From the IMG/VR virus record IMGVR_UViG_3300006639_000058: a stretch of DNA of 16,958 nt. One strand, 5' to 3'. The notes beneath the pieces are model-generated. The model did no database searches, had not been told where the DNA came from, and saw only the letters and a program-made list of their open reading frames with translations. This DNA comes from a virus. Position numbers and translations under genes: made by a program. Below are positions 1 to 16,958 of this stretch, piece after piece (the stretch's first letter is position 1; each line of letters opens with the position of its first letter).

Positions 1-100
1 CGCGCGGGGCCGCGGTAGTGCGGGCACTTGTCGCACTGCTCGGCGGTCGGCCGGAGCGGCGCGAGCTCGGGGTGCGTGCATTGCGAATGAACCAGGCGGG
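1..100. repeat. Left copy of an exact 100-bp terminal direct repeat (identical to 16859-16958)
   Basis: Base-by-base comparison of the first and last 100 nt shows identity. The repeat is bounded only by the window edges. Confidence 0.97.
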
Positions 101-110
101 TGCAGCTCAT
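1..110 (-). CDS. 5' portion (ATG at 110-108) of the wrap-around 74-aa CxxC protein gene. It continues at 16858 after circularisation.
   Basis: ATG 110-108 overlaps the TGA stop (109-107) of the upstream Cys-rich gene as ATGA. The frame runs off the left edge and continues in phase at 16858 down to the TGA at 16746-16744. Confidence 0.65.
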   Translation of the reverse strand, partial: MSCTRLVHSQCTHPELAPLRPTAEQCDKCPHYRGPA

Positions 111-1033
111 GGGATTTGCAGCGTGACGGTATGCGTGCGGGTCCACTCCTCGTAGCACAATCCCGAGCCGGGGCCCGGACTATTCACGTCGCCGCAGGGG
201 CAAGAGAACGTCGGCGCGTATGGCGGCGTAGCCGCGTAGCAGATGTGGCCATCGATGCAGCAGAACTCGCTGCACGTCTTCGCGTACTGACTCGACTCGT
301 AATTCGGCACGACGTTGATGGGCGTACCGAAGCCGCCGACGCATACCCATCCGTATGGGTTCTGCGCGCCCTTGCACACGTCGGTCGAATTGAACACGGT
401 TCCGATCGTGGGCCACCGCAGGCCGCGCGTGTCGAAACTGTGGATGTCGAGACACTCGAGCTCGGCGATAAACACGCCCTCGAGGATCAGGTTTAGCGTG
501 TACGGAGGCGGCGGCGAGCCGTAAATCGGGACGCATATCGCCGACACGCTTTCGGTGACGGTGACGGTGGCGACGACCTCGAACTCGAGTAGCAAATGCT
601 CGTCGACGACGGGCGTCCCGAATTGCTCCGCGCATGGGTCGCCACATCGGATACGGATTGAGTCGGTCGTCACGTTCCCAGTTCCGACCATGGTCACGCC
701 CAGGCACGGTTGCGGCGGGTCTTTGCAGGTATGCGGGCACCCCGGATCGGTGCCGTCGAGGGTCGCGGTCGGCTGGTCGTTCGACCGGCTGAACGACCAC
801 GTGCCGTTCCCCGCGCCGCCGATCGCGGATAGCCGGCAGAGCACGGCATCGAAGGCGAGCCGTGCGTTCGTCACCGTCAGCGTCTCGGTCACCTCGGTGT
901 AGACGTCGGCGTCCTTGTATTGCTTGCGCGTCTGCGTGATCGTGAACGACACGCGGACGATACCCGGCGCGCATTCGCACCACTCCTCGCAGGTGACGCC
1001 GGGGCCGCAGCAGCACAGGCGGTGCGTGCTCAC
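107..1033 (-). CDS. Cysteine-rich protein of unknown function (308 aa from GTG 1033; 321 aa if GTG 1072 is used)
   Basis: The frame is open over 107-1072. The likely start is GTG 1033-1031, which forms a GTGA overlap with the upstream stop and is preceded by GGAGGGG. There are 23 Cys, including the clusters CCCGPGVTCEEWCEC (N-terminal) and CSEFCCIDGHIC...SCPCGD (C-terminal). I see no signal peptide and recognise no family. Confidence 0.7.
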   Translation of the reverse strand: MSTHRLCCCGPGVTCEEWCECAPGIVRVSFTITQTRKQYKDADVYTEVTETLTVTNARLAFDAVLCRLSAIGGAGNGTWSFSRSNDQPTATLDGTDPGCPHTCKDPPQPCLGVTMVGTGNVTTDSIRIRCGDPCAEQFGTPVVDEHLLLEFEVVATVTVTESVSAICVPIYGSPPPPYTLNLILEGVFIAELECLDIHSFDTRGLRWPTIGTVFNSTDVCKGAQNPYGWVCVGGFGTPINVVPNYESSQYAKTCSEFCCIDGHICYAATPPYAPTFSCPCGDVNSPGPGSGLCYEEWTRTHTVTLQIP

Positions 1034-1335
1034 GGCCCCTCCGCGACATACGACGGCGGGACGAGGTACCACCCCTCGGGAATCTCGATGCGGTTCTCAG
1101 ACAGCGTCCACGTCCCGTCGATCCGGTGGTACACGCGCAGGCGGCTCGAGGGGCCGACCCGCATCGGGCTCTCCTCCGGCACGAACACCGTTCGGCTCGC
1201 GCATCCACTCGCGCAGGCGAGAACCAGCGCGAGCCAGGCGATCACGGTCGGGATCGGCGTCTCGAGCAGTCGATACGCCGCGGCGCTCGAGGTAGCCCAA
1301 CAGCGCGAGCACGATCGCGACGAGGGCACGATCAA
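1030..1335 (-). CDS. Putative lipoprotein, o-spanin-like by position (101 aa)
   Basis: TTG start at 1335-1333 (TTGA overlap with the upstream stop), or GTG at 1329. A hydrophobic stretch IPTVIAWLALVLA is followed by a lipobox-like VLAC/ASGC. The mature part is short and Pro-containing. The gene follows a holin-like gene. Confidence 0.5.
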   Translation of the reverse strand: MIVPSSRSCSRCWATSSAAAYRLLETPIPTVIAWLALVLACASGCASRTVFVPEESPMRVGPSSRLRVYHRIDGTWTLSENRIEIPEGWYLVPPSYVAEGP

Positions 1336-1514
1336 ACACTCGACCCCTTCGAGTCCTTCGCGAAGATGAGGCCCACGCCGGCAATCACGGCCGCGGCGGT
1401 GGTGCCCCAGTCGGCGACGGTCGCCGGGTCGGAGTCGAACATGGCGGTGAGCAGCGACCCCACGGCGGTGAGGATGGCGGCGATGCCCAGGACGGTCGTA
1501 TTACGGTCTTTCAC
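1332..1514 (-). CDS. Holin-like small membrane protein with two TM helices (60 aa)
   Basis: GTG start with GAGAGG about 8 nt upstream. Two hydrophobic helices (VLGIAAILTAVGSLLTAMF and AAAVIAGVGLIFA) and a charged C-terminus KDSKGSSV. Confidence 0.55.
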   Translation of the reverse strand: MKDRNTTVLGIAAILTAVGSLLTAMFDSDPATVADWGTTAAAVIAGVGLIFAKDSKGSSV

Positions 1515-1680
1515 GGTGGTGCCTCTCGAGCTCGGAGATTCGGTGTTCGAAATTGGCCATGCTCGCGCGGAGCTCGGCGAGCATGACCTCCACGCGGTTG
1601 ATCTTGCCGACGACGATCATGGTCGTCGAAACGACGGCGGCGATGATCCCGATGGCGGCGGCGAGAACGTCGACGGTCAT
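1501..1680 (-). CDS. Small protein with an N-terminal TM helix and an amphipathic/coiled-coil tail (59 aa); holin/antiholin or mini i-spanin-like
   Basis: ATG at 1680-1678. TM helix LAAAIGIIAAVVSTTMIVVG is followed by EVMLAELRASMANFEHRISELERHH. The gene overlaps the next gene by 14 nt. Confidence 0.5.
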   Translation of the reverse strand: MTVDVLAAAIGIIAAVVSTTMIVVGKINRVEVMLAELRASMANFEHRISELERHHRERP

Positions 1681-1684
1681 GGCG

Positions 1685-2485: not shown

Positions 2486-2832
2486 TACCTGGTCACCTCC
2501 GGCGTGACGTAGAACGACCCCTCGAGGATGCGCGTCACGATGCCCGTGCTCGTCTCCTGGTACTCGATGTCATACACGCCGGCCATCGGCGCCGAGATCG
2601 CGGCGGTGGCGGTCGCCGAGATCACCGGGATGATGTGCGAATGCCCGGATCCGCTGTGCGTGAGCGTGATGCCGCTCGCGTTCGTCAGCGAGAACACGGT
2701 GCTGGTCGCGGCGTGCGAGGTGCGGCCCTGCATACGGACGGTGTATCCGGTGGTGAGGTTGATTCCCTGCACCTCGAGATCGAACGTAAACGTGGCGCCC
2801 TGCTCGATCGTGATGTCGTATCTCGCGGCCAT
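2485..2832 (-). CDS. Small beta-sandwich-like virion (minor tail) protein (115 aa)
   Basis: ATG 2832 lies in a TAATG junction. The pattern YDITIEQGATFTF ... GVYDIE ... RILEGSFYVTPEVT resembles, from my recollection only, a domain recurrent in phage minor tail proteins. Confidence 0.5.
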   Translation of the reverse strand: MAARYDITIEQGATFTFDLEVQGINLTTGYTVRMQGRTSHAATSTVFSLTNASGITLTHSGSGHSHIIPVISATATAAISAPMAGVYDIEYQETSTGIVTRILEGSFYVTPEVTR

Positions 2833-3257
2833 TAGGTGCACGCTCCATCGATTGCCTGGGTGTTGATGATGAGCCAAATGAGCGTACCCTCGGTGTTCCG
2901 GTACGGAACGACCCAAACGGGCGTGCCCACGGGAATCTGCTTCGGCTCAAATCCCGCCGGCAGGCCGGACGGGTTGACGCCGAACGACGCGTTCGTGGCG
3001 CTGTTGCCGAGCTCCGAGATCGAGATCGCGTAGTCGGACGTCGGGTAGGTCTTGACGGTCGGCTCGTAGTTCGGCGCGTCACCGATGTCAATCGAGTCGA
3101 ACGCGTAGCGCCACCGCCAGTCGCCCGCTGCGGTGCCGAGGGCGGTCGCCGCGGTGATCTTGACGAGCAGGCCGTGCAGGGGCACGTTCGGGTCGGGCGC
3201 GCGGGATGCGCGGTCGATGCCGCGCTCGCGGCGGTAGGCGGTGTCGGCGCCCCTCAA
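2832..3257 (-). CDS. Hypothetical tail-module protein (about 141 aa; start uncertain)
   Basis: The frame is open over 2832-3440. The best start is TTG 3257-3255 (TTGA overlap with the upstream stop, AAGGGGA 9 nt upstream). An alternative GTG lies further in. Confidence 0.5.
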   Translation of the reverse strand: MRGADTAYRRERGIDRASRAPDPNVPLHGLLVKITAATALGTAAGDWRWRYAFDSIDIGDAPNYEPTVKTYPTSDYAISISELGNSATNASFGVNPSGLPAGFEPKQIPVGTPVWVVPYRNTEGTLIWLIINTQAIDGACT

Positions 3258-4189
3258 AACCAAATCCCCTTGTAGCACTGCCACTTCTGGGATTCGCCGA
3301 GGGCGCCGGCCGGGAAGATGTCGTTGAAGTCGACCGCGCCGCGGACCTCGCGGACCCACCGGACGTCCTCGTAGTTCACGTCGTTCATCTTCGGTCGGCC
3401 GTCCGTGCCGAGCGCCGCCTCCTGCGAATGGAAGTACCACTCATCGGACGTGATGTCGAGCACGACCTCGTAGTACTCGTGCTCGAGGTGGTTCACGGAC
3501 ACGCCCTCGCATAGCAGCTGTCCGGTGGTGAATCCGAGGAACTCCTCGGTATTCCGCTTTCCGGAGTACTGCACGACGATTGCGGCGACGTCCTTCAGGT
3601 TCAGGCTCTCGACGTCGACGACGAGCCGCAGCTTCATCGCGACCTGCTTCACGTCGACGTCGACGTTCTTGATCGTGCCGCCGATGTGGGCCGCCGAGCG
3701 GTTGCCGGTGTCGGGCGGGTTCGCGGTGTAGTCGTCGTGCAGGAGGCGCGTGGACCGCGTGCGGATGACGGGGATCACGGACGCCGGCAGGATCAGGCCG
3801 AGCGGAAGCGTCGTCGCCGATGCCATGTTCTCGACGGTCGGTCCGAGCGCCTTCGCGGAATCGGTTTGGAAGTAGCGCGTCGAGAACTCGGCGGTGACTT
3901 CCATGCCGCGGCCGTTCGGGCGGAACGACAGGCGCCGGCACAGCGCCGATTCCATCCAGCTGGTCCCGGTGCCTCCCGTCACGAACCAGGCCGATCCGAT
4001 CTCGGGGATGACGGGACCTCCGGTCGTGCTGTCGGTGAGGATGAGCTCCGCCTCGTTCGGGGCCATCTCGGCGTCGTCGTTCCGCTCGACTTGGTAGACG
4101 TCCACGATCGTGTGGATGTCCCAAATCTCGCCGAAATTCGTGGTCACGCTCTTTCGGAACGAGGTGTAGTCGGTGCTCGAGCGGCTCAT
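3254..4189 (-). CDS. Hypothetical tail protein, distal-tail/baseplate-like by position (311 aa)
   Basis: ATG 4189 lies in an ATGA junction with GAGGGAG upstream. The composition looks globular. The gene lies directly after the tape-measure-like gene. Confidence 0.65.
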   Translation of the reverse strand: MSRSSTDYTSFRKSVTTNFGEIWDIHTIVDVYQVERNDDAEMAPNEAELILTDSTTGGPVIPEIGSAWFVTGGTGTSWMESALCRRLSFRPNGRGMEVTAEFSTRYFQTDSAKALGPTVENMASATTLPLGLILPASVIPVIRTRSTRLLHDDYTANPPDTGNRSAAHIGGTIKNVDVDVKQVAMKLRLVVDVESLNLKDVAAIVVQYSGKRNTEEFLGFTTGQLLCEGVSVNHLEHEYYEVVLDITSDEWYFHSQEAALGTDGRPKMNDVNYEDVRWVREVRGAVDFNDIFPAGALGESQKWQCYKGIWF

Positions 4190-4875
4190 GTGTTCTGCTC
4201 CCTCTGCTGCCGTGCGCGCTTCTCGTTCTCGATCGCCGCGCGGTCGATCTGCTCCTGCGTCAGATACGACTGCGCGCCGGCGGTCGAGCGGGCGGTGGCG
4301 ATGTCGGCGCCGAGGATCACCTCGTCGCCCGTCTTGCCGGCGAGCACGCCGCCCAGGGCGGCGACGAGCCACTTGCCGTTCTCGTTGATCGACCCCGCCC
4401 AGTCCTGGAAGAACCCGAGCACGCCGCCGACCTGGCCGCCCTCGGACATCGAGCCGGCGGTGAACGCGGCACCCCATCCGGTGTTCGCCGACTCGGCGAT
4501 CGCGGCGCGCTCGGCGCCCTGCGCGAGAATGCCCGCCTGCGCGGCGTTGATTCCCGTCGCCCGGATGTCGGCGCCCGTCTTGAACGCCTTCAGCGCCGAC
4601 TCGCCCGCTTTCACGGCGTCGGTGAACTGGGACACGATCGCGCCGGCGGCGGTGAAGGGCGCCGCGGCCGCGAGGGCGATGCCCGCGCCGCCGATCGCCA
4701 TCGAGCCGGCGCCGCCGCCGAGGGAGCCCAGGGCGCCGAACCGCCCGAAAGGCCCGCCGGCGAGGGCGAGCCCCTTGGCGCCGATCGACTGCACCTGCTT
4801 CTGGGCCTCGGCGATGCCCTTCTGCATCGTCTTGGCGTTCACGGCGACGTCGATGTTGAGCGTGGGAAGCTTCAT
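4186..4875 (-). CDS. Short Gly/Ala-rich tape-measure-like protein (229 aa)
   Basis: ATG 4875 lies in an ATGA junction with GGAGGAG 6 nt upstream. Hydrophobic Gly/Ala stretches (GGAGSMAIGGAGIALAAAAPFTAAGAIV) are flanked by helical charged regions. The position is downstream of the tail tube and chaperone genes. Confidence 0.45.
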   Translation of the reverse strand: MKLPTLNIDVAVNAKTMQKGIAEAQKQVQSIGAKGLALAGGPFGRFGALGSLGGGAGSMAIGGAGIALAAAAPFTAAGAIVSQFTDAVKAGESALKAFKTGADIRATGINAAQAGILAQGAERAAIAESANTGWGAAFTAGSMSEGGQVGGVLGFFQDWAGSINENGKWLVAALGGVLAGKTGDEVILGADIATARSTAGAQSYLTQEQIDRAAIENEKRARQQREQNT

Positions 4876-5450
4876 GTGAACTCCTCCACCCGGCGGAGCC
4901 GCGTGGTCTTTATCGACTCGTTGCGCGCGTCGACGGCGACGTTGATCGCGTTCGCGACGTAGCCGCGGAAGAGCGGTCCGAGCGCCGCGTGCGTGAGCTC
5001 GGATGCGTGCGTCCCGCGCAGGTATTGGCCGCGGCCGCGGTGGTACAGGCCGCGCTTCCACCCCTTGCCGCGCGCGAGCGGCGGTCGCCGCAGCGACTTC
5101 GACCACGAATGGGTGCCCAGTTCCGTGAAGTGCGAGCGCCATCCGGTGCCGGCCGCGTCGTAGGACGCGCGCAGCTTGCGGCCGCCGAGCCCCTTCGTGT
5201 CTGCCTTCCCGGTGCGGTATGCCACGGAGCCCCAGGCGGTGCCCTTGAAGTTCTTCATCTTGGCGCGCGCGTCGCGCGGCGGAAGCTTGTCGGCGTTGCG
5301 CGCGCGGATCGCGGCGAGCTCCTTCTTGAGGAACGGCCGGATGGCGTCCTTGACGATGCGATCCTGTATCGCGAGCGGGAACTGCTCGAGCGCCTTCACG
5401 ACGGCGCGAGTGTTCTCAGGTCGGACGGTTGCTGAGAATCCTGAGCTCAT
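4872..5450 (-). CDS. HK97-gp10-like head-tail/neck family protein candidate (192 aa)
   Basis: ATG 5450. The N-terminal part AVVKALEQFPLAIQDRIVKDAIRPFLKKELAAIRA and the later WRSHFTELGT resemble the gp10-family pattern (helical N-terminus, then y-a-x-f-v-E-f-G-T). The protein is very basic. Confidence 0.45.
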   Translation of the reverse strand: MSSGFSATVRPENTRAVVKALEQFPLAIQDRIVKDAIRPFLKKELAAIRARNADKLPPRDARAKMKNFKGTAWGSVAYRTGKADTKGLGGRKLRASYDAAGTGWRSHFTELGTHSWSKSLRRPPLARGKGWKRGLYHRGRGQYLRGTHASELTHAALGPLFRGYVANAINVAVDARNESIKTTRLRRVEEFT

Positions 5451-5579
5451 CGAGGCGCTTCCGTATCTTCGACCAGTCGGGCAAGTCGAGCTCCACGGCG
5501 AGCTCGACGATCGAACGCTCCCACGGCGCTGCATTCCGGCCTTTCAGGATCCGCGCGAGCAGCGCGCGCGAATCCCGTC
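5416..5579 (-). CDS. Start-less ORF in the -1 frame relative to the chaperone gene; probable gpGT-like frameshift extension (about 54 codons)
   Basis: Between 5579 and about 5500 the frame has no ATG, GTG or TTG. Third-position G+C is about 81 percent by my count (44/54), which is coding-like. The frame is open upstream to 5724, overlapping the chaperone ORF. Without this ORF there would be a 129-bp gap in an otherwise gap-free operon. Confidence 0.4.
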
Positions 5580-5864
5580 CTAGTCCCGCCCTTCGTTGTA
5601 CAGCCTCTCGATCGCGACGACGAGCGGCGCCGCGACGTGGGCCGGACACCTGCCGGCGTGCTCGAGGGAATCGAAGATCGGCACGCCCGCCTCGTCGTGC
5701 GCGTGGCGGTGGAGCGTGAAGCATCGCGCCTCCACGGGACCGCGCTCGGCGGCCTGCACGGCCTCGACGAGATCGACAAGCGTCGGCCTCGAGAGCATGA
5801 CGACCATGCCGTCGACCTCGACGCGGACGGGCTTGAGCGTGAGCATGTCGCGGAGCGAGGTCAT
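5580..5864 (-). CDS. Tail assembly chaperone, gpG-like by position (94 aa)
   Basis: ATG 5864 lies in an ATGA junction with the tail tube stop. It is a small acidic protein directly downstream of the tube gene and is followed by an overlapping -1-frame ORF. Confidence 0.55.
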   Translation of the reverse strand: MTSLRDMLTLKPVRVEVDGMVVMLSRPTLVDLVEAVQAAERGPVEARCFTLHRHAHDEAGVPIFDSLEHAGRCPAHVAAPLVVAIERLYNEGRD

Positions 5865-6253
5865 CCGATCGTGTACTCGCCGGTGATGCGGAGGGTGAAC
5901 GAGGCGCGGATCGCGTCGTTCACCGCGACCTCGGGGGACCAGTTCTCGACGATGCACGTTCCGGAGATCGTGGCGCTTGTGTGGAGAAACATGCTGAAAT
6001 AGAGCGTGGCGCCACTCTTCACGGCGCCCTCGACGAGCGCCTTCACCGCATTGCCCTGGTCGTAGTAGCAGCTCCCGGTGATCGAGCCGCCGCGGATGCC
6101 GGCGATGAACGAACGGTCGAGGCCGCCGATCTCGGTGACGTCGACGAGCTCGGTGTTTAGAGACACGCTGGCGGTGGCGATGCCGAGAGCGGTGGTCGGC
6201 GATGCCGTGGCGGCGACGTACAGGACGGCGTTGTTGGTGTTGTAGACGGCCAT
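5861..6253 (-). CDS. Major tail (tube) protein, small TP901-1/lambda-V-N-like type (130 aa)
   Basis: ATG 6253. The pattern ELVDVTEIGG..RSFIAGIRGGSITGSCYYD ... ATISGTCIVENWSPEVAVNDAIRASFTLRITG is typical of tube proteins. The position relative to the neck and chaperone genes also fits. Confidence 0.7.
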   Translation of the reverse strand: MAVYNTNNAVLYVAATASPTTALGIATASVSLNTELVDVTEIGGLDRSFIAGIRGGSITGSCYYDQGNAVKALVEGAVKSGATLYFSMFLHTSATISGTCIVENWSPEVAVNDAIRASFTLRITGEYTIG

Positions 6254-6254
6254 T

Positions 6255-6650
6255 TCACGGGCTCCAGTAGATGGTGGTGTTGATCGTGGCCATCGCGGGC
6301 TCCTGCTCGTCGCCCATGCCGATCGCCGGCGGGTTGAGGGTTTCGTCGTTCACGATCACCGCGTGGATGTCGATCGTGTTGAACGTGCCCGCGAGCAATC
6401 GCGACTTCACGGTCGAGACGAGGGTGCCGGCGTCGATGGTCGTCTCGGCGACGACGGTGAACACTGCGGTCGCCGAGTAGGTGTCCGAGAGCTCGGCGGT
6501 CATCGCCGCCTGCACCTCGAACGTCACCGCCGGCAGCGCGCTTTCCTGCAGGCGGTAGCCGTGGGTCACGCGCTCGTCGGGCACGCCGGCCGCCGACAGG
6601 GTCGAGCCGGTCGTGAGCATGGTGCGGATCGCCTCCTCGATGATCGCCAT
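6255..6650 (-). CDS. Tail completion / tail terminator-like protein (DUF3168-like, 131 aa)
   Basis: ATG 6650 lies in a TGATG junction. Size, position immediately upstream of the tube gene and general pattern fit. The family call is from memory only. Confidence 0.5.
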   Translation of the reverse strand: MAIIEEAIRTMLTTGSTLSAAGVPDERVTHGYRLQESALPAVTFEVQAAMTAELSDTYSATAVFTVVAETTIDAGTLVSTVKSRLLAGTFNTIDIHAVIVNDETLNPPAIGMGDEQEPAMATINTTIYWSP

Positions 6651-6982
6651 CAGTCGATCTCCTCGGCGGCGATCACCGCGACGCGGTCGGCCTCGTCGAG
6701 ATTGAGGATCGACTGGATGCGGAAGGTTCGCCCGCGAATCTCGAGCCGGTCGACCTCCGAGAGGCCCGTGTTCTGCACGGCCTGCCACCGGGCGCGTACC
6801 TCGACGTTGCGGCGGACGACGACGCCGTCCGCGTACGGCGTCTCGGTGGCCCCGCTCTCGCGCAGGTCGGCTCGGAACGTCCCGCCGGCGGTCCAAGTGT
6901 CGACGCGCATTCCGAGGCCGTCGCGCGTCGTGCTCGGCGCCATGCGCGTCGCGGTCCATCGGAGTAGGCCGCCGGAGATCAT
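6650..6982 (-). CDS. Head closure / head-tail joining protein (SPP1 gp16-like, 110 aa)
   Basis: ATG 6982 lies in an ATGA junction. The pattern W..GGTFRADLRE.....YADGVVV...VEVRARW......SEVDRLEIRGRTFRIQSILN.DE...VAVIAAEE matches the Phage_H_T_join type. Confidence 0.7.
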   Translation of the reverse strand: MISGGLLRWTATRMAPSTTRDGLGMRVDTWTAGGTFRADLRESGATETPYADGVVVRRNVEVRARWQAVQNTGLSEVDRLEIRGRTFRIQSILNLDEADRVAVIAAEEID

Positions 6983-7497: not shown

Positions 7498-7506
7498 GGA
7501 AAGCGA

Positions 7507-7528
7507 CCTGGGGGGTTTCCCCCCCAAG
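7507..7528 (-). terminator. GC-clamp hairpin with a GAAA tetraloop between the capsid and connector genes
   Basis: The minus strand reads CUUGGGGGG-GAAA-CCCCCCAGG (9 pairs including one G-U). It is followed by UCGCUUUCC and then the connector ATG. The U-tract is weak, so this may be an attenuating terminator or an RNA stabiliser. Confidence 0.4.
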
Positions 7529-9389: not shown

Positions 9390-10533
9390 TCGGTGTGCCC
9401 TCCTGCGCGGACGTGTCGTCGCCGAGATTCGTCTGGCCGCCGCCCGTGCCCATGTTGAGCGCCACGATCGGCGCGTCGAGGCCGGGGAGCGGCTCGAGAT
9501 CGAGCTCCTCGCGGGCCTCGTTCCGCGTGATGATGCCGGCCTCGACGCCGGTCCGAAGGGCGGCCATGTGCTCGGCCATGCCCGGGCGGACCAGGTCGTC
9601 GGTGTCCCACACGACCGAATCGAACGGCGTCGCGAGCTTCGCGGTGATCTCGGAGGCCCACACCGCGAGCCAGGGCGCGAGACACGCGTCTGCGTACATG
9701 CGGGAGAGCCATTCCATCGAGCCGTACGACGTGCCGACGTTCTCGGAGAGATAGGACGCCGGCACGCCGTAGATGCGCGAGACGTCGCCGACGCTGTATC
9801 GGCGGGCGGCCTCGAGGCCGGTGTCGTCCATCGTGCTCGAGATGCGCTCGACCTTGGCGCCCTCCATCATGACGAGCGGGCGGCCCGCGTTCACGCTGCC
9901 GGCGTGGCGGTCCATGTAGTCGCGCTCGATCTTCTGCATCGCCTCGGCGGACAGCTTGCCTGGATGCACGATGGCGATCTTCGGGTTGCCGGCGTTCTCG
10001 AACGACTTGAGCGCCATCTGCTCCTGGGCGGCGAGCAACTGCAGCGACGTGCGGCACAGCGCCACCGGCGACTCTCCCCACAGGCCGTTGAGGCCGGGCG
10101 CGCGCAGGTGGAACATGTCCGACATCTGCACCTCGCCGTACACCGCGGTCTTGTAGACGGGCCGCGCGCCGGACGTGTCGAGGGACACGCTCTCGGGCTC
10201 GAGCGGGATCAGCTCGAGGAGCTCGCCGCCGCGCGTGCGGTTGATCGCCGCGAACGCGTTCCCGTAGAGCAGCACCTGCATGGTGAGCGTGCGCCGCAGC
10301 TCGAACGACGACATGTACGGGCTCGGCGAGCGGAGCAGCGAGTCGGCGCCGCTGTTCGACACCTCGAGCTCGATGCGGGCGATGTCGCCGGCGATCAGCG
10401 TCACCGCCCGGTAGACCGGCGTGTAGCGCAGCGCCGTCAGAGGCCCGATGTACGGCAGCGCCGAGGGCGCGCCCGACACATAGGTCGACGACCACGGACC
10501 GATGAACATGCGATTGAGGAGGGATCGCAGCAC
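9379..10533 (-). CDS. Portal protein, HK97 family (384 aa; start uncertain, GTG 10533 or ATG 10509)
   Basis: Size, the position between TerL and the protease, and the Phage_portal-like pattern (YRAVTLIAGDIA, LLYGNAFAAI, PVALCRTSLQL). Confidence 0.88.
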   Translation of the reverse strand: MLRSLLNRMFIGPWSSTYVSGAPSALPYIGPLTALRYTPVYRAVTLIAGDIARIELEVSNSGADSLLRSPSPYMSSFELRRTLTMQVLLYGNAFAAINRTRGGELLELIPLEPESVSLDTSGARPVYKTAVYGEVQMSDMFHLRAPGLNGLWGESPVALCRTSLQLLAAQEQMALKSFENAGNPKIAIVHPGKLSAEAMQKIERDYMDRHAGSVNAGRPLVMMEGAKVERISSTMDDTGLEAARRYSVGDVSRIYGVPASYLSENVGTSYGSMEWLSRMYADACLAPWLAVWASEITAKLATPFDSVVWDTDDLVRPGMAEHMAALRTGVEAGIITRNEAREELDLEPLPGLDAPIVALNMGTGGGQTNLGDDTSAQEGTPNDF

Positions 10534-10576: not shown

Positions 10577-12229
10577 TCAGAGATCCTCATATCCGCTTCG
10601 AGTCTGGCCACCCCACGCGTGCAGGCCCATGATCGCGGCGACGAGCGGGTCGACGATCGACTTGTTCTTCCGCTTGTCGACGCGGATGTTGCCGTTCGCG
10701 TCGCGGATCGCGATCGCCGTCCGGCACGCGTTCCGCATGATCGGGTCGTCGCCGATCACGATGCGCCCGCCGACGTAGTACTGCTGCCACAGCTGGCACC
10801 CGGGACCCATGGTCGAGATCCCCTGCGAATACGACTGGAGCGGGATGCCGTCGACATTCACCACCTGCTCGGAGAAGTACTTCGAGCCCCACTGGTCGAA
10901 CGCCACCGCCTGCAGCTGGAACTCCTCCGAGATCCGCCGCAGCTCCTCGCGGATCGCGTCGTAGCTGATCTCGCGGCCCGGCGTCAGGGTCAGGTGGCCG
11001 TTCGCCGCCCAGGCGCGGACGGGCACGCGGTAGTCCAGTTCCCGCTGCCTGATCTCGGCGTCCGGCCACCAGTAGTGGCCGCGGAGCGCCACCCGCCCGT
11101 CGTCGAGCGGGACGCAGACGACGAGGGCGGTCATGTCAAGGGATTTGGACAGGTCGAGGCCCGCCCAGGCGGCGCGCCCGCGCAGCGCCGGCCAGTCGAT
11201 GTCCGTGGGCTTCGGGTAGATCGACAGGTCGAGCCACCCGCCTCCACCCTCGGTCATCCGGCACGCGTGGTAGCGGGCGAACTCCGCCCGCCCCATCGCC
11301 GTCGTGCGGGCGGACGCCCAGGCGCGGCGGATGCTGCGGACGTCCGGCTGTCCGTGCTCGCTGCCGGGATTCGCCTTCGGCCAGACCTCCTCGTCGTCCA
11401 CCTGGTCGTCGGCGTCGATCCCGTACAGCATCGCCACCGTCGAGTCGTCCGTGATCTCGCCGGTGAGGATCGACTCGGCGTGGGCGATCTTCTCGCCGTA
11501 GATGTTGTCCGGGTTGTCGGACGGCGTCGAGATGATCACGCCGAGCGCCTCGCGCCGCTTCGCCATCGAGCTCGTCAGCTTCGACAGGAACCGCCCCCGG
11601 TACTCGGCGGCCTCGTCGGCGATCCACAGCGACGGCGTGAGGCCGTCGAGGGACGTCTCGCGCGCCGGCAGCGCCGTGAACATGCAGTCGGCCTCCTGCC
11701 GCAGGATCGAGTATTGCCGGATCACCATGTCCGTCTTCTCGCCCAGGCGACGCACCATGGTCTTGGCGCTGTCGAGGAGAATCTCGGCCTGCTCCTCGCG
11801 GTTCGCGATGACGTGCACGCGGCGGCCCGGCGCGGTCTGCATGTCGTACAGACAGAGGGCGGCCATCAGCGTGGTCTTGCCATTGCCGCGGCCGACCTGA
11901 AGGATGCCGTTCGTGACCCGCCGGCGGCGGTCGTCGGTCCACCGCCACCCCCACAGATTCGCAAGCGCCCACGCCTGCCACGGCGCCGGCACGAACGGGC
12001 GGTCGGAGTCGTCGCCGATGAGGGCTAGTGTCCCCATGAACACTAGCAGGCGGTCCACCTCCTCCCAGTCCATGTAGATGTCGGTGCGCTCGAGGTCCGT
12101 CAGGAACCGTTTCGCGGCCGCGTAGATCCACTTCCCCGCCGGCCGCGAGCCGTCGACGATCGACTCGGCGTACGCGGTCACGATCTGGCGCGCGTTTGTG
12201 TCGGTATTTTGGACGGTTACAGGCGGCAC
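10577..12229 (-). CDS. terL: Terminase large subunit (Terminase_1-like, 550 aa)
   Basis: GTG 12229 with AAAGGAG 8 nt upstream. Walker A-like QVGRGNGKTT, Walker B-like LWIADEAAE and a C-terminal nuclease-like region. The gene lies upstream of the portal gene. Confidence 0.9.
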   Translation of the reverse strand: MPPVTVQNTDTNARQIVTAYAESIVDGSRPAGKWIYAAAKRFLTDLERTDIYMDWEEVDRLLVFMGTLALIGDDSDRPFVPAPWQAWALANLWGWRWTDDRRRRVTNGILQVGRGNGKTTLMAALCLYDMQTAPGRRVHVIANREEQAEILLDSAKTMVRRLGEKTDMVIRQYSILRQEADCMFTALPARETSLDGLTPSLWIADEAAEYRGRFLSKLTSSMAKRREALGVIISTPSDNPDNIYGEKIAHAESILTGEITDDSTVAMLYGIDADDQVDDEEVWPKANPGSEHGQPDVRSIRRAWASARTTAMGRAEFARYHACRMTEGGGGWLDLSIYPKPTDIDWPALRGRAAWAGLDLSKSLDMTALVVCVPLDDGRVALRGHYWWPDAEIRQRELDYRVPVRAWAANGHLTLTPGREISYDAIREELRRISEEFQLQAVAFDQWGSKYFSEQVVNVDGIPLQSYSQGISTMGPGCQLWQQYYVGGRIVIGDDPIMRNACRTAIAIRDANGNIRVDKRKNKSIVDPLVAAIMGLHAWGGQTRSGYEDL

Positions 12230-12276
12230 CTTGGGGGCTCCTTTTTCCCTCGAAACCTACCCCCCCCATCCACCTG

Positions 12277-12310
12277 AGTTATCCACATTGTGGATAACTT
12301 GTGGATAACT
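12277..12310. promoter_or_regulatory. Array of three perfect consensus DnaA boxes: a 23-bp perfect palindrome plus an adjacent 11-bp direct repeat
   Basis: TTATCCACA at 12279-12287 (+). TGTGGATAA at 12289-12297 and 12300-12308, which is the same box on the minus strand. The 11-mer TGTGGATAACT occurs three times (12277-12287 inverted, 12289-12299, 12300-12310). A degenerate box CCATCCACC lies at 12266-12274 and a C8 run at 12260-12267. Confidence 0.6.
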
Positions 12311-12566
12311 AGGCGTGGCGCTTGCAATGGCAGTCCTTGCAAAGGGTTGCGAGGTTTGTCTTGTCGTAGGTGAGATCAGGTCGTTGCGCTCGAGGGATAA
12401 TGTGGTGCACCTCCTCGCCTGGGCGCCCACAGTCGACGCATCGAGGGTTTCGACGCATCCACTGATTGCGCATCCACGTCCATCGGCCCCCAGTGAGGCG
12501 CCGGCCGGACACGTTGAACGTCTTGGCGAATGCGGGCTTATGGGTGAATCGTGGGATCGATGCCAT
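12309..12566 (-). CDS. HNH endonuclease (85 aa), the packaging-associated type found next to terminase genes
   Basis: ATG 12566 with AAGGGG upstream. The motif CVDCGRPGEEVHHIIPRAQRPDLTYDKTNLATLCKDCHCKRH contains the Cys pairs and the H-N-H residues. Confidence 0.85.
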   Translation of the reverse strand: MASIPRFTHKPAFAKTFNVSGRRLTGGRWTWMRNQWMRRNPRCVDCGRPGEEVHHIIPRAQRPDLTYDKTNLATLCKDCHCKRHA

Positions 12567-12927
12567 GGGCACCCCTTGCGATGAGCTCCTGCCGGTAAGC
12601 GATGGCACCTTGGGCGGCCGTGCTGTCGCCGACCCACGTCTCGAGCGTCTGGATCACAAGCCATGGCCCGCGAGACTTGCGGTGGAAGATCACCCACGGT
12701 TGCCCTCGGGCGTCCCTCTGGACCTGCGCAAGGGTGTCATCCCACTTGAACGTCTCGGTGCGCTTGACCTCGACATGCAGGCCGAGGCCGTCGCACATGA
12801 TGTCCGCGGCGGTCCCAGGACGCCCGCTGTACTGCACGCTTCTCCTGCACAGGAGGCCCATGCTGTTCAGCCGGTCGACGATCTCCCTCTCTCCCACGGC
12901 TCCCTTTCGTCGTGACATGCCTCCCAT
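12538..12927 (-). CDS. Hjc-like PD-(D/E)xK Holliday junction resolvase / endonuclease (129 aa)
   Basis: ATG 12927 with GGAGG 5 nt upstream. RRKGAVGEREIVDRLNSMGLLCRRS..SG......DIMC.....HVEVKR aligns by eye with archaeal Hjc (KRKGSAVERNIV..L...GF.V.R...SG...DII.....IEMK). Confidence 0.75.
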   Translation of the reverse strand: MGGMSRRKGAVGEREIVDRLNSMGLLCRRSVQYSGRPGTAADIMCDGLGLHVEVKRTETFKWDDTLAQVQRDARGQPWVIFHRKSRGPWLVIQTLETWVGDSTAAQGAIAYRQELIARGAHGIDPTIHP

Positions 12928-13038: not shown

Positions 13039-14043
13039 TTATACCCTCCTCACGACCATTCTCGGACGCCCTGCGGCACCCTCTCGGACGGTTTCCACCT
13101 CGCACATGTCGAGATCGATCGCGGCCTCAAGGAGCTCGCGGGCCTTCACCTTGGGGAGCATGTGCCCCATGGCGCGCTCGACCACCTCGCGCTTTGTGGC
13201 GGTGCCGTCGACGAACGCGGCGACGAACTCCTCGGTGGTCCATTCCCGGCGGCCCGTTTGGGCGGCCTTCTTGGGCGTCCACAGGTCATCCGGGTCGGCG
13301 TCGGGCTCGAGGGTCACCACGGGCGGCGAGACGCGCAGGACGGCCGCCTGGGGCGGCGGGAAGCTTCGGCACACCGCCCGCATGGTCACGCATCCTTCGG
13401 TGGCGTGCCGAAGGTAGACGATGTGCGTGTCGGTCGCCCTCGAGATCGCGCCAGCGCCGGAGCCGACGTCGGTCGTGCCCTTCTGACTTTGGTCGCCCTT
13501 GGAAGCATGGTGCACGTTGAGCACGGACGCGTTCGAGGCCGCCGCGATCCGGTCGAGGTGGTTGTACAGCTGCACCATGTCGCCGTTCGCGTTCTCGTCG
13601 GTGCCCTTCGGGATGAACCGGTAGAACGCGTCCAGGGCGATCAGGGTCCACGTCCCGCGCTCGCGCTCGCGGACGATCTCCTCGACCTGCTCGAGGCCGC
13701 TGGATGCCCCTCTGAGCCACGCGATGTCCATGGACCTGTCCACGGCCTCGAGATCGGCTCCGAGGGCTGTAGCGACCTTGTAGAGCCTCTGTAGGCCCGT
13801 CTCGGGGTGCAATTCGTTGTCGATCAGCAGGACGCGCCCTCGGGCGACGCGCCGGCCGAGCCATGGGGCGCCCGTGGCGATGGCGATGAGGAGGCCGTAC
13901 AGCATCCACGTCTTGCCGACCTTCGGCGACGCGATCCAGTTCACGACCTCGCCGCGGCGGAACAGGCCGTCGACGACCGGCTCGCGCAGGCTCGGCGGGC
14001 CCTTCGCCAGATCAGGACGGGTCAGATACAGTCGCTCACCCAC
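13039..14043 (-). CDS. RepA/DnaB-like RecA-fold P-loop ATPase (AAA_25-like replicative helicase candidate) with a C-terminal winged-helix-like domain (334 aa)
   Basis: GTG 14043. Walker A SPKVGKTW and Walker B LIALDAF. The pattern LLIDNE, LNVHHASKG and GSGAGAISRATD is typical of plasmid and phage RepA-like ATPases. Confidence 0.8.
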   Translation of the reverse strand: MGERLYLTRPDLAKGPPSLREPVVDGLFRRGEVVNWIASPKVGKTWMLYGLLIAIATGAPWLGRRVARGRVLLIDNELHPETGLQRLYKVATALGADLEAVDRSMDIAWLRGASSGLEQVEEIVRERERGTWTLIALDAFYRFIPKGTDENANGDMVQLYNHLDRIAAASNASVLNVHHASKGDQSQKGTTDVGSGAGAISRATDTHIVYLRHATEGCVTMRAVCRSFPPPQAAVLRVSPPVVTLEPDADPDDLWTPKKAAQTGRREWTTEEFVAAFVDGTATKREVVERAMGHMLPKVKARELLEAAIDLDMCEVETVREGAAGRPRMVVRRV

Positions 14044-14548
14044 GGGGCCACCACCTGTAGAACGGCGACGTCTGCAGGCTCGGCCACATGAACGAATCCC
14101 GCGTCACGTCGGTGCGTCGGGTCGGCCTAGGGTCGTACAGGGGCGGGAGGAGCGACCACAGGCGGTAGAGCTCCGCGAACGCCTGCGGGAGGGCGTCATC
14201 CTCGAGCGCCTCGGTGGCGTCGAGGAACTCGCGCCCGATGTTTCGTTCGTTTCGCGGGGAGGTAATCGTGTTGTAGAACACGCGGGCGACGGCACGGCGC
14301 ACGTCGCGGTCGATCTCCTCGCGGCCGGCGAGGTGCTCGCGCAGGAACCGGCGCGCGCTCTCCTGGGTGAACCGCCCGTCACGCTCACGGCGCTCCTCAT
14401 CCTGCCGGGCCTTGCGGAGGGCCGCGGCGCGCGCGACCTCCTCGCGCTCGAGCCCATACTCCTCCGCGGCGATCACTGCCGCCAGTGCGGGGAGCTTGCC
14501 CACCCCGATGAGGTAGGACATCCGATCCACTGCGTCGTCGATTTGCAT
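14036..14548 (-). CDS. Hypothetical protein in the replication module (170 aa)
   Basis: ATG 14548 with GGAGG 5 nt upstream. The protein is helical and charged with a Trp-rich C-terminus. It overlaps the ATPase gene start by 8 nt. I recognise no family. Confidence 0.6.
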   Translation of the reverse strand: MQIDDAVDRMSYLIGVGKLPALAAVIAAEEYGLEREEVARAAALRKARQDEERRERDGRFTQESARRFLREHLAGREEIDRDVRRAVARVFYNTITSPRNERNIGREFLDATEALEDDALPQAFAELYRLWSLLPPLYDPRPTRRTDVTRDSFMWPSLQTSPFYRWWPRG

Positions 14549-14668: not shown

Positions 14669-15079
14669 TCAGAACGGGATTTCGTCCTCGCCGATGCCCG
14701 CGCTGCCGGCGGGCGCCGACGCGCCGACGCGCTCGAGGGCGTCGACGACGAACGTGTCGTTCCACGGGCGGATCGTAGCGCGCACGCGCTCGCCCTTCCG
14801 CAGGGGGTCGACCTTCAGGATCAGCTTCTCGTCGAACACGCGCCAGAAGACGCGCTCCTCGGAGTCGGTCTTCGGGGACAGCGACGCCATCGGCTTTCCG
14901 TTCTTGGTGTCCTTCACGCCCCAGTATCCGACCTCGATCTCGACGGTCTTGGCGCCGGCGGGCGCGGCGGCCTTGTAGCGGGCCTCGGCGACGGATTTCG
15001 TGGGGGCGGGAGTCTCGGTGTCGGCCTCGAGCTCGCGGATGAGCGCCCGCAGGCGGGCGACGATGGTTTCACTGGTCAT
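14669..15079 (-). CDS. Short SSB-like protein with a canonical acidic IPF tail (136 aa)
   Basis: ATG 15079 with GAGAGGAAA upstream. The C-terminus is ...GSAGIGEDEIPF, the bacterial SSB protein-interaction tip. The central part (EIEVGYWGVKD...VFWRVFDEKLILKV...ERVRATIRPW) is a beta-rich candidate OB fold. The N-terminal helix is atypical for an SSB. Confidence 0.55.
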   Translation of the reverse strand: MTSETIVARLRALIRELEADTETPAPTKSVAEARYKAAAPAGAKTVEIEVGYWGVKDTKNGKPMASLSPKTDSEERVFWRVFDEKLILKVDPLRKGERVRATIRPWNDTFVVDALERVGASAPAGSAGIGEDEIPF

Positions 15080-15536
15080 CGGGCATTTCCTCTCTTGTGA
15101 CGGTGGCGACGTTCTCGCCGAGCATGGGGAGCAGGTGTCCGAACAGGAGCCGCAGCGCGCGACCTGCGGCGCGCGTCGAGGCCATGGCACGGCGGGCGTA
15201 GAGCGGGCGCGACGACCACAGGCGCTCGTCGTCCATGCAGATCGCCGAGCCGCGGCCGACCACCTGGCCATCCTTCACGATCTCGCAGGTGGCGACGAAT
15301 CCGCCGACGCCGTCGATCTCGAGCCGGTCGGCGGACACCTCGCGAACGTGGTAGCCGAACATGCCCGCGAGCATGGTGGCGCCGGCCACGTGCACGTATC
15401 GGCGGTCGCCGATCATGCTCGAATGGTCGCGGATGATCCGAGGACCGAGCAGGGCGCACGCGTCGCGCTGCACGGTCATGGGGGCAAGCATCGCGGCGGC
15501 CTCGGGGGTGATGCGGCGGACGGTGATCTCGCTCAT
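15069..15536 (-). CDS. Candidate Rad52/Sak/ERF-like single-strand annealing protein (155 aa)
   Basis: ATG 15536 lies in an ATGA junction. The pattern RRYVHVAGATMLAGMFGY.V.EV ... FVATCEIVKDGQVVGRGSAIC ... ARRAMASTRAAGRALRLLFG resembles the beta-beta-beta-alpha core of Rad52-like SSAPs. The gene lies directly upstream of the SSB-like gene. The call is by eye only. Confidence 0.35.
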   Translation of the reverse strand: MSEITVRRITPEAAAMLAPMTVQRDACALLGPRIIRDHSSMIGDRRYVHVAGATMLAGMFGYHVREVSADRLEIDGVGGFVATCEIVKDGQVVGRGSAICMDDERLWSSRPLYARRAMASTRAAGRALRLLFGHLLPMLGENVATVTREEMPDDQ

Positions 15537-16090
15537 GCCTCGCCTTCCTTCCAGCAATCCCAGCCGCGCTCGGTCGCAAGGTCGCGGCCTCGCAGAGCGT
15601 AAGCCGAGCATGCAATGCGCCGCGCCTCGTCGCGCTCGGCGGAAATCACTCCACACTCAATGCGAAGCATCGAGCATTCCGTCTCAACTGTTCGGAGTTC
15701 CCGAATGGTTGAATCGCGCTCCGCCGTAAGACATTCGATGGTCCTGCGGTGCGCCGTAAGCGTTTCGCGGAACTCATCAGCGTTTCTTACAAGTTCCGCC
15801 TTCAGCGTCTCGGCATCGCGCTGCGCGTCGAGCGCCTCGTGGCAGAACTGCGTCGTACCTTGGTTCCGAGCGCAGCCCGTGTTTCGTCGCATCCGCTCGA
15901 TCTCGCGCCGCGCCCCGTCGCGCTCGGCCATGAGGCGTTCGATCCCGATGCGGCAGTCGGTGACGGTAGACCGCAGCATTTCGATCTCGTCGGCTGCGTC
16001 GCACAAATCTCGCGACCAAACCCCCATAGCTGGAGCGATACAACACTTCGAAAGAAGGACGCGCAGCCGCGTCACGATATCGACGCTCAC
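15533..16090 (-). CDS. Cys-containing coiled-coil protein with an internal AERD repeat (185 aa)
   Basis: GTG 16090 lies in a GTGA junction with GGGAGG upstream. Three repeats of the type C-x(6-9)-AERD-x-ARREI/IREL. There are 12 Cys. The G+C content of this gene looks lower than that of its neighbours. Confidence 0.65.
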   Translation of the reverse strand: MSVDIVTRLRVLLSKCCIAPAMGVWSRDLCDAADEIEMLRSTVTDCRIGIERLMAERDGARREIERMRRNTGCARNQGTTQFCHEALDAQRDAETLKAELVRNADEFRETLTAHRRTIECLTAERDSTIRELRTVETECSMLRIECGVISAERDEARRIACSAYALRGRDLATERGWDCWKEGEA

Positions 16091-16452
16091 AAAGCCTCCC
16101 TCGCGAGGTTGTCCCCGGCGCCCGGGGTAGTCTCGGGCGCCGGGGTGCGGCAACACGCCGCGATTTCGGTCCGCAGGCGGTAAATCTCCTGCCGGGCGTC
16201 GCACAGCTCGCCCCACACGCGGGCCTCCCGCCACCGTTGGTCGTGCAGGATGCCCGCCAGGGCGGTGAGCATGTCGGCGGTGGTGCGGTCGCCGGCGCGG
16301 ATCGCGTCGGCGCGCTCGAGGATGCGCGCGCGCATGCGGTGGTACGGCATTTCCGCGTGCAGGTTGTTCGGGTGGTACTCGCGCTCGAAGCGGTCCATGC
16401 CCGGCTGGGGCTCGTTCGCCTCGAACATCTCGCGCTCAGCTTCGCGGTTCAT
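16087..16452 (-). CDS. Hypothetical helical protein (121 aa)
   Basis: ATG 16452 is preceded by GGAGGTGACGA and forms an ATGA overlap with the upstream peptide stop. It shares the motif LCDAxxEIxxLRxxxxxC with the next gene. Confidence 0.7.
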   Translation of the reverse strand: MNREAEREMFEANEPQPGMDRFEREYHPNNLHAEMPYHRMRARILERADAIRAGDRTTADMLTALAGILHDQRWREARVWGELCDARQEIYRLRTEIAACCRTPAPETTPGAGDNLAREAL

Positions 16453-16705
16453 TCGTCACCTCCCTCAAGGAACAGCGGCGCGAGGGTCGCGCACAGCATG
16501 AACAGGACGGCGCTTCCGTAGATGAGGTATCCAAGCATGGTCGTGTCTCTTTCCTGCGTGCCGTCGTGCTCAGGTCGAGCAGGACGGCGTACCCACTGAT
16601 CGCCTCGCGCACGATGCGCCGGCGAGAGATTCCAAGGGCGGCGTGGAGGGCGTTGAGCGCCTCCGCGGTGGTGTCGTCGATGGCGACGGATTTGGTGGTT
16701 CGCAC
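16436..16705 (-). CDS. Ribbon-helix-helix (CopG/Arc/MetJ-like) DNA-binding protein (89 aa from GTG 16705)
   Basis: TKSVAIDD (beta strand), TTAEALNALHAALG (helix A) and ISRRRIVREAISGYA (helix B). It is the first gene after the only gap at the late-to-early junction. Its C-terminal 35 aa or so are low complexity and overlap the 29-aa peptide gene in another frame. Confidence 0.6.
   Translation of the reverse strand: MRTTKSVAIDDTTAEALNALHAALGISRRRIVREAISGYAVLLDLSTTARRKETRPCLDTSSTEAPSCSCCARPSRRCSLREVTNEPRS
16449..16538 (-). CDS. 29-aa hydrophobic membrane peptide (MLGYLIYGSAVLFMLCATLAPLFLEGGDE)
   Basis: ATG 16538 with AGGAAAGAG upstream. Its stop forms an ATGA junction with the next gene. The G+C pattern by codon position (about 66/38/76 percent) is coding-like in this frame. 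Confidence 0.45.
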   Translation of the reverse strand: MLGYLIYGSAVLFMLCATLAPLFLEGGDE

Positions 16706-16709
16706 GCCC

Positions 16710-16722
16710 TGTGTTATACACA
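16710..16722. promoter_or_regulatory. Small inverted repeat TGTGT-TAT-ACACA just upstream of the RHH gene; candidate operator
   Basis: Seen in the 38-bp gap between the CxxC gene stop (16744) and the RHH start (16705). RHH proteins typically autoregulate through short repeats. No convincing -35/-10 pair was found. Confidence 0.3.
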
Positions 16723-16743
16723 CTATCGGCGCGACGGGCGGCG

Positions 16744-16958
16744 TCACTTGATGAGATTCTTGGAAATCTCGTTGAGCGCCTCGCGGCGCTTCTGACACCC
16801 GCCGCAGGGGCGGATTCCCACGGCGTGCGTCACCGTGGCGACGACGTCGCCGAGGCCGCGCGCGGGGCCGCGGTAGTGCGGGCACTTGTCGCACTGCTCG
16901 GCGGTCGGCCGGAGCGGCGCGAGCTCGGGGTGCGTGCATTGCGAATGAACCAGGCGGG
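16744..16958 (-). CDS. Wrap-around small CxxC...CxxC zinc-ribbon-like protein. It is 74 aa once the ends are joined; the first 10 nt are present only at 101-110.
   Basis: Joined translation: MSCTRLVHSQCTHPELAPLRPTAEQCDKCPHYRGPARGLGDVVATVTHAVGIRPCGGCQKRREALNEISKNLIK. Third positions are G+C-rich. TGA stop at 16746-16744. The ATGA coupling to the upstream gene lies at the other end of the window. Confidence 0.65.
   Translation of the reverse strand, partial: RLVHSQCTHPELAPLRPTAEQCDKCPHYRGPARGLGDVVATVTHAVGIRPCGGCQKRREALNEISKNLIK
16859..16958. repeat. Right copy of the exact 100-bp terminal direct repeat (identical to 1-100)
   Basis: Base-by-base identity with 1-100. Confidence 0.97.

Follow-up and report, generated by a model that had tools for sequence, protein, structure and literature searches.

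Our analysis indicates that IMG/VR virus record IMGVR_UViG_3300006639_000058, a stretch of 16,958 nucleotides that we call the window throughout, very probably contains the whole 16,858-bp genome of an HK97-like tailed phage. The phage is uncultured and probably virulent, its tail is predicted to be non-contractile, and the template of the assembly would have been replicating DNA in circular or concatemeric form. Positions 1-100 and 16859-16958 of the window are exact copies of each other, and when the window is compared with itself the identity ends there without any extension; no other long repeats are found in it, the remaining self-matches being short stretches of GC-rich, codon-level similarity. 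With one copy of the repeat removed there remains a unit of 16,858 bp with 67.4% GC. The first copy lies inside a gene, g01, that is split by the window ends: its 5' part occupies 1-110 on the minus strand, opening with an ATG at 110-108 that overlaps the stop codon of gene g30 as ATGA, and it continues at 16858-16744 with the 3' part, on the same strand, to give a protein of 74 aa with 6 Cys.

Seven public contigs carry the g22 protein of the window. One of them, ena:ERZ27245772:k141_480564 (L064 in our numbering of relatives), assembled with MEGAHIT, is 16,999 bp long, which is 16,858 bp plus a 141-bp terminal overlap, and its unit is the same 16,858 bp as that of the window with 1 mismatch. 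Its breakpoint falls at window position 11120, inside the gene for the large terminase (TerL), and it crosses the window junction without interruption, holding the whole 74-aa g01 with a translation identical to the one obtained by joining the window ends. Over 1.4-5.4 kb, five shorter contigs of different sample origin match the window at 99.9-100% identity, and the homologues of g01, present in most relatives, are uninterrupted there. The initial annotation had proposed a complete, closed genome and had read the terminal repeat as an assembly overlap, placed within a coding frame that is intact only after the ends are joined, and L064 bears out both points. On this evidence the window is a complete genome, and its repeat marks the arbitrary point at which the assembler broke open a template that was circular or concatemeric; the physical termini, wherever they are located, are not at the window ends. 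A circular map is also implied by the wrap-around join of L072 (IMGVR_UViG_3300042914_001976), which at 21,565 bp is alone among the related contigs in clearly exceeding one unit. It runs from tail genes through early genes, TerL and head genes into a second, divergent tail set, carries no host genes, and joins the two tail-module variants via a 1.1-kb segment shared at 95% identity, so that it is probably a chimeric wrap-around assembly and not a larger genome.

At such GC content raw lists of open reading frames (ORFs) are useless (ours held 138 of at least 40 aa on both strands), and we therefore used a frame plot of GC content at third codon positions (GC3), picking start sites from ribosome-binding sites and from ATGA and GTGA overlaps. 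The plot gives a strong minus-strand coding signal nearly everywhere, and the refined list holds 30-31 tightly packed genes that cover 97.4% of the unit, all of them on the minus strand, to which the coordinates of all genes below refer. The public collection's gene caller finds 30 genes on L064, all on one strand and with nearly the same boundaries as in the refined list, in agreement with the initial estimate of about 31 genes at about 97% coding density, all minus. Scans of the window for tRNAs, Rfam families and sigma-70 promoters returned nothing, and GC skew, dominated by one-strand coding, was uninformative as an indicator of the origin. Searches of the window proteins against Pfam, PHROGs and NCBIfam (the three family searches, below) gave no match to an integrase or recombinase and none to a sheath family. 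DNA replication, head, neck and tail seem to be built with about 31 genes.

The initial annotation's full HK97-type head module is borne out by Pfam matches. A gene for an HNH endonuclease (g10, 12309-12608; Pfam HNH, 1e-10) stands 79 bp upstream of TerL, a position kept in relatives, and is followed by TerL itself (10577-12229; TerL_ATPase, 5e-20, and TerL_nuclease, 1.7e-31), the portal (9379-10533; Phage_portal, 1.4e-64), an S78 prohead serine protease (8829-9389; 4.6e-40) and a 429-aa HK97-fold major capsid protein (7550-8839; Phage_capsid, 1.5e-41) that has a delta-domain-like N-terminal region of about 130 aa before the capsid domain. Next come a gp6-like head-tail adaptor (6979-7527, though the start may be 7497; Phage_connect_1, 1.3e-5), a head-completion or stopper protein (6650-6982; Phage_HCP, 4.8e-8) and g17 (131 aa, 6255-6650), which has no family match and sits, by position and conserved synteny, where a tail terminator would be expected. 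With an HK97-fold capsid protein, a portal and a TerL with both ATPase and nuclease domains, these matches place the phage in the Caudoviricetes. An exact look-up of the portal as first delimited did not find it on record, probably as a result of the choice of start. The head region is also mosaic within the group: between L001 and the window, identity is 96-99% for helicase, TerL, portal and protease but only about 51-55% for the capsid protein (L001 5591-7051 against window 7550-9085), which suggests that members of the group have recently exchanged the capsid gene.

Downstream of the head genes lies a tail tube gene (130 aa, 5861-6253; Pfam Phage_tail_2, PF06199, 1.7e-9), and a profile of this tube family aligns with the HK97 major tail protein at an hhalign probability of 91%. 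It is followed by g19 (94 aa, 5580-5864), a putative tail assembly chaperone G by its position and its frameshift architecture, and by a T extension (5416-5590) reached through a -1 frameshift. The -1 frame is open in 29 of 29 distinct relatives and has high GC3; it opens at most 10-13 nt before the g19 stop and extends 150-350 nt past it. The slip must fall in the ~10 nt that precede the g19 stop. The -1 frame lacks a start codon of its own, and no canonical XXXYYYZ slippery heptamer was found for the shift, the conserved context of which is GAA GGN NNG GAC TAG. The peptide encoded by the extension (GLGRDAR..PWERS..ELDVPDW..LDEL or GLGRD..PWERS..ELDLPDW..LDEL) is more conserved than g19. Comparison of the relatives confirms that g19 and its extension are a G/GT chaperone pair made by programmed -1 frameshifting and conserved across the family. 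With a tube, no sheath and no ORF left unassigned from the neck genes to the tube, the predicted tail is that of a siphovirus.

Beyond the chaperones, g20 (192 aa, basic, 4872-5450) sits between them and g21 and has 40 homologue clusters of 189-206 aa. From a sequence motif it was considered as an HK97-gp10-like neck protein, a candidate that was dropped, hhalign against all HK97 structural proteins giving at most 30% and structure comparison giving no match. The next gene, g21 (229 aa, 4186-4875), encodes a Gly/Ala-rich protein with a hydrophobic segment whose length is kept at 223-250 aa in relatives; it is our best candidate for a tape-measure protein. Next, g22 (311 aa, 3254-4189) would be a distal-tail protein of an uncharacterised family with about 200 clusters at 50% identity, none of the 103 members that were scanned having a Pfam domain; its AlphaFold2 model (predicted local distance difference test score, pLDDT, 70) matches in BFVD only uncharacterised proteins of uncultured phages, the best with E=6e-13. 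The rest of the tail module consists of g23 (about 141 aa, 2832-3263), called on L064 and kept in relatives; g24 (115 aa, 2485-2832), which matches phrog_1084 (1e-17) and, weakly, a tail-fibre assembly family (4.2e-5); g25 (167 aa, 1982-2485), Thr/Val-rich, repetitive and fibre-like, with homologues in few relatives; and g26 (95 aa, 1685-1972), called on L064. In hhalign comparisons none of the lambda-type M, L, K, I and J tip proteins was recognised. As a separate observation, the distal-tail region of L059 encodes a 394-aa protein (9027-10211) whose C-terminal domain is SO2946-like (Pfam, E=3e-17), in a place where the proteins of the window are all small.

The replication genes lie on the other side of the HNH gene. 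The product of g08 (334 aa, 13039-14043) is an AAA_25 ATPase of the RepA/primase-helicase type (Pfam AAA_25, 8.1e-31; also PHROG DNA primase/helicase families), and g07 (170 aa, 14036-14548), in the refined list, is its upstream partner. Some relatives have instead a single 528-aa fusion of RepB_primase_C and AAA_25 (L043 13805-15391; L048 5606-7195). A RusA-like or PD-(D/E)XK nuclease and putative resolvase is encoded by g09 (12538-12927), with matches to phrog_244 (3e-14) and to Pfam PDDEXK_15 (2.6e-4, below the curated cutoff).

The intergenic spacer of 79 bp between HNH and TerL (12230-12308, read on the minus strand) is a candidate cos site and/or origin. It reads TAG-TTATCCACA-AG-TTATCCACA-A-TGTGGATAA...GGGGGGGG-TAGGTTT...GGAG...GTG, with three perfect DnaA boxes (TTATCCACA) in 30 bp, at 12279-12287, 12289-12297 and 12300-12308, two direct and one inverted, that start right after the HNH stop codon; the chance expectation for a box with at most one mismatch is 0.58 in the whole window. 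Relatives with no more than 56-59% identity in TerL (L016 9225-9263, L048 7966-7985, L002 57-65) have tandem perfect boxes in this place as well, and in others a different motif, AAACCGC..GAGCCAAAAAC, is repeated here. The boxes are followed in the window by a G8 run and TAGGTTT. When we compared the spacers of L001, L002, L004, L016, L021, L028, L036, L043 and L048, a run of G8-G11 and then TA(G/A)GTTTT (window 12245-12270) was kept in most of them.

Relatives' contigs end in this spacer more often than expected. Among 42 whole contigs found with a tail-protein query, 12 of the 84 ends fall in it against 1.2 expected (P~2e-9), and three contigs of 15.8-16.3 kb begin at TerL and stop just past HNH. 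Because the HNH protein of HK97 promotes cos cleavage by TerL (PMC9410871), a cos site in the spacer is the natural reading. The ends scatter over about 150 nt, however, on both sides of two G-runs, and a poly-G break in sequencing or assembly fits them as well as a cos site does. By analogy with HK97 the spacer is a possible cos site, a poly-G break being equally possible. The cluster of DnaA boxes could be an origin, a DnaA-assisted packaging site or a means of regulating the late operon.

How small is such a genome, and how could it make a virion? PhagesDB alone lists 109 cultured actinophages of 14,270-19,679 bp, most of them siphoviruses (bioRxiv 10.1101/2022.02.05.479200), and Rhodococcus phage RRH1 has 14.3 kb, with podoviruses reaching down to 11.6 kb (PMC7762592). 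Thus 16.9 kb is small but not record-breaking, and the initial statement that this size is near the lower limit for tailed phages turns out to be only loosely true. For a capsid of triangulation number T=4, a capsid-geometry model predicts 17.98 kb, with a range of 13.2-24.5 kb and 77 isolated tailed phages in the class (PMC7762592), and on this model the genome of the window would probably fit a T=4 capsid. Replication would proceed with the phage helicase and primase-like proteins and the host polymerase. The concatemers would be cut by TerL with the help of HNH, by analogy with HK97 gp74 and its cos, at the conserved G-rich site in the 79-bp spacer, and the genome would fill a small HK97-fold capsid, probably of T=4. 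The tail would be short, since a tape-measure-like protein of 229 aa corresponds to roughly 35 nm at 1.5 A per residue, and it would end in a set of small proteins that belong to no described families. Lysis would be carried out by small membrane proteins together with a lysin that was not recognised.

Several results weigh against this reading. Tail morphology and capsid T-number are predictions. No small terminase (TerS) was matched in the three family searches, and the spacer between HNH and TerL holds no ORF. The AlphaFold2 models of g20 and g22 are of moderate confidence; that of g20 (pLDDT 64) has no match in the Protein Data Bank (PDB), and for g22 a PDB profile search found nothing and a Foldseek comparison of its model with the PDB gave only non-significant matches (E>=0.07), mostly to tail-tube, tail-tip and baseplate proteins. 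The distal-tail proteins and the tape-measure candidate g21 were picked out by position and composition, and g21 has no match in the three family searches. Within the siphovirus-type tail set of the initial annotation, then, the tube (from PF06199 and hhalign) and the chaperone frameshift (from the comparison of relatives) stand, and the tape-measure part is a matter of position and composition. Similarly, its replication and recombination genes are upheld by the AAA_25 helicase and the RusA-like nuclease, but its lysis-like genes lack homology support, and the three family searches recognised no endolysin. Moreover, two relatives were binned with unrelated phyla and are uninformative as to the host.

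The three DnaA boxes in 30 bp would also suit a phage-plasmid, that is, a temperate phage kept as a circular extrachromosomal replicon, which is the alternative that survives best and which we nevertheless regard as improbable. The boxes are absent from many relatives, which have a different motif at the same place, and a circular assembly is equally expected from replicating lytic phage DNA. A ribbon-helix-helix (RHH) regulator in the window, the missing integrase, and replication proteins of the AAA_25/RepB_primase_C type in relatives are in keeping with such a lifestyle, yet Pfam and PHROG library searches found no partition, toxin-antitoxin or repressor/antirepressor modules, and the plasmid database PLSDB holds no close relative (TerL at most 30% identical, and one weak match to the helicase).

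We consider it quite improbable that the window is a helper-dependent satellite, similar to a capsid-forming phage-inducible chromosomal island (cf-PICI), or a defective particle like a gene transfer agent, borrowing its missing functions (small terminase, lysin, tail-tip parts) from a helper or host. It encodes a tube, a chaperone, a tape-measure-like protein and, for the distal tail, at least four proteins that are conserved; more than 80 contigs showed no integrase and no chromosomal context. The initial annotation had named an embedding in a larger prophage as a finding that would speak against its reading, and none of the >80 related contigs has host flanks or an integrase; with no integrase match in the window and no host genes on any related contig, nothing points to a prophage. 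Small size, a compact head module and an AAA_25 primase-helicase-type gene are indeed features of these islands, and the PF06199 tube with a very short tape-measure-like protein is reminiscent of the Rhodobacter capsulatus gene transfer agent (RcGTA). However, the genome is of the size that its own small capsid is predicted to accommodate, and the window has its own replication genes and a circular closure, unlike gene transfer agent clusters. That TerS and endolysin are not recognised fits dependence on a helper, but unrecognised TerS and lysin genes are common in divergent phages.

Could the 100-bp repeat be a true direct terminal repeat (DTR) of a linear virion genome, as in phages with short T7-like repeats? 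Some DTR phages do have terminal repeats of about this length, and the present one is exact, but we judge this most improbable. A DTR would have a fixed position, and here place and length change with the assembly: the overlap is 100 bp inside the conserved frame of g01 in the window, 141 bp inside TerL in L064, which is continuous across the window ends, and 127 bp in the connector gene of IMGVR_UViG_3300036770_002120, a relative with 65% TerL identity. These are typical assembler k-mer sizes. Overlaps of three lengths in three genes and three assemblies indicate assembler overlaps on a circular path and not a biological DTR, and an HNH gene beside an HK97-type TerL points to cos-type packaging. 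That the closure is an artefact, a chimera produced by a repeat shared between different genomes, has hardly any likelihood, for although such joins do occur in the group, as L072 evidently shows, the 16,858-bp unit was recovered, with 1 mismatch, in two assemblies that differ in both pipeline and sample, five more contigs are 99.9-100% identical over 1.4-5.4 kb, and the gene order is the family-wide one.

The HK97-like phage whose complete genome we take the window to be belongs to a sizeable group of phages of about 14-18 kb found mainly in lake metagenomes. Three scans of IMG/VR gave 14 + 46 + 20 = 80 loci with conserved gene order, and overall more than 80 related contigs occur in IMG/VR and in lake metagenome bins; apart from the wrap-around L072 they are at most 18.5 kb long, and their GC content ranges from 44 to 67%. 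Among GTDB genomes we found two contigs in metagenome-assembled genomes from Lake Mendota (Crocinitomicaceae and Pirellulales), most simply explained as mis-binned phage contigs, and two matches of about 25% in Solirubrobacterales. No nucleotide match to GenBank phages was found. The TerL and capsid protein searches against phage databases that had been suggested at the outset were run and returned no close GenBank phage, the best identities being below 30% for TerL, about 25% for the capsid protein and at most 31% for the portal, and g22 has no match among GenBank phages. As judged from these comparisons, the lineage is new with respect to described phages and already present, unannotated, in public metagenome collections; a literature search on the samples led to no paper. 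The perfect TTATCCACA boxes, together with best, though weak, TerL and portal matches to proteobacterial phages, hint at a non-actinobacterial host.

The protein of g01 has the C-terminal motif GLGDxVAxVTHxxGIxPCGGCxxRxxxLN and belongs to no known family. The gene is followed by g02 (16436-16747, start uncertain), a putative ribbon-helix-helix regulator of the CopG/Arc type (Pfam RHH_3, 4.4e-5; RHH_1, 1.1e-4), which is kept in relatives and is not called by the collection's gene caller. At the start of this gene there is a palindrome, TGTGT-ATA-ACACA (16705-16723), that could be an operator; on the plus strand, 16714-16722 is a one-mismatch match to a DnaA box. Further along are g03 (121 aa, 16087-16452), backed by GC3 and a GGAGG ribosome-binding site and called on L064; g04 (185 aa, 15533-16090), a coiled-coil-like protein with 11 Cys that is in both the refined list and the L064 gene call; g05 (155 aa, 15069-15536), which matches phrog_19042 (E=1.9e-16); and g06 (136 aa, 14669-15079). 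The last has an acidic C-terminal tail, EDEIPF, noted by eye, which resembles that of the bacterial single-stranded DNA-binding protein; we did not keep this assignment, as the C-terminus is all that speaks for it and Pfam, NCBIfam and the PDB lend it no support.

Between the tail module and g01 lie three small genes with predicted transmembrane segments, g27 (1501-1680), g28 (1332-1514) and g29 (1030-1335), together spanning 1030-1680 and kept in relatives. They have no family matches and may, by position, be holin-like or lysis-associated. The last gene before the junction, g30 (308 aa, 107-1033), encodes a protein with 23 Cys and an N-terminal CCC, a member of a hypervariable Cys-rich family. 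In more than 20 relatives a protein of 196-680 aa with 5-9% Cys is found at the position of g30 (for example L059 11193-12230, L043 10599-11528, L050 9889-11913 and L016 4088-5026), and these proteins all begin with MS..R.CCC and share a short C-terminal strand that is conserved, but cannot be aligned elsewhere. Searches with g30 in Pfam, PHROGs, NCBIfam and the PDB gave no matches, and a profile of the family, run against 5.8 billion proteins, recovered nothing beyond close relatives except two weak matches.

What does this genome add? Closed in two independent assemblies, it is a complete addition to the smaller of the tailed-phage genomes, and it anchors an uncultured group (>80 contigs; about 200 g22 clusters) that has no cultured or GenBank-annotated relative. 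Existing knowledge of the lower size limit of tailed phages is left unchanged. The genome is of interest less for its size than for its packaging region, with DnaA boxes and a G-run, and for its compact tail, lysis and early genes, which are largely unannotated and encode proteins of which over half belong to no described family; compact genomes of this kind are useful as minimal models. Going further, one might speculate, though we think it rather unlikely, that the relatives form an undescribed, family-level group of freshwater 'mini-siphoviruses', with a head of about T=4 and one of the shortest tape-measure-like proteins (229 aa). Packaging would then use TerL and HNH without a small terminase, with host DnaA on the boxes providing DNA recognition or with the site doubling as the origin, and the Cys-rich family with the CCC motif would serve in host recognition or lysis.

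Finally, we compare the window with known systems. The cf-PICIs, at about 15 kb, combine a module of HK97-type capsid, portal, protease and terminase with a replication protein of the primase/helicase type. They have no tail genes, are integrated and carry an integrase, whereas genes for a tube, a chaperone and the distal tail are present in the window, and integrase and chromosomal context are both missing. RcGTA is a compact one-strand head-tail module of about 15 kb with a very short tail-length determinant, and it packages random fragments of about 4 kb. The window shares with it the tube family (PF06199), the gp6-like adaptor and the head-completion protein; in contrast to RcGTA it has replication genes, HNH and a region resembling a packaging site, and it is an independent circle that was not encountered in any host chromosome. 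Nor would a gene transfer agent be expected to form an independent closed circle that carries an AAA_25 helicase together with HNH and RusA-like nucleases.

Closer in size are the small actinobacteriophages of 14.3-19.7 kb (RRH1; Arthrobacter cluster AN, Microbacterium EE, Gordonia CW), which belong to the same size class, encode their own head and tail, are of siphovirus type and have predicted T=4 (or T=3) capsids. The window has no detectable nucleotide similarity to them, and its protein similarity to them is no closer than to other phages. HK97 (Hendrixvirinae) is much larger, at 39.7 kb against 16.9 kb, with a tape measure of 1,089 aa against the tape-measure-like protein of 229 aa; unlike HK97, the window has no recognisable TerS between HNH and TerL, where there is only the 79-bp spacer, no lambda-type M/L/K/I/J tip proteins, no integrase and no immunity region. 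Nevertheless the order of genes is that of HK97, running from TerL, portal, S78-type protease and capsid through the gp6-like adaptor and head-completion protein to the tube and the G/GT -1 frameshift, with an HNH gene that on the circular map directly precedes the packaging genes and with a tube that resembles the HK97 major tail protein.

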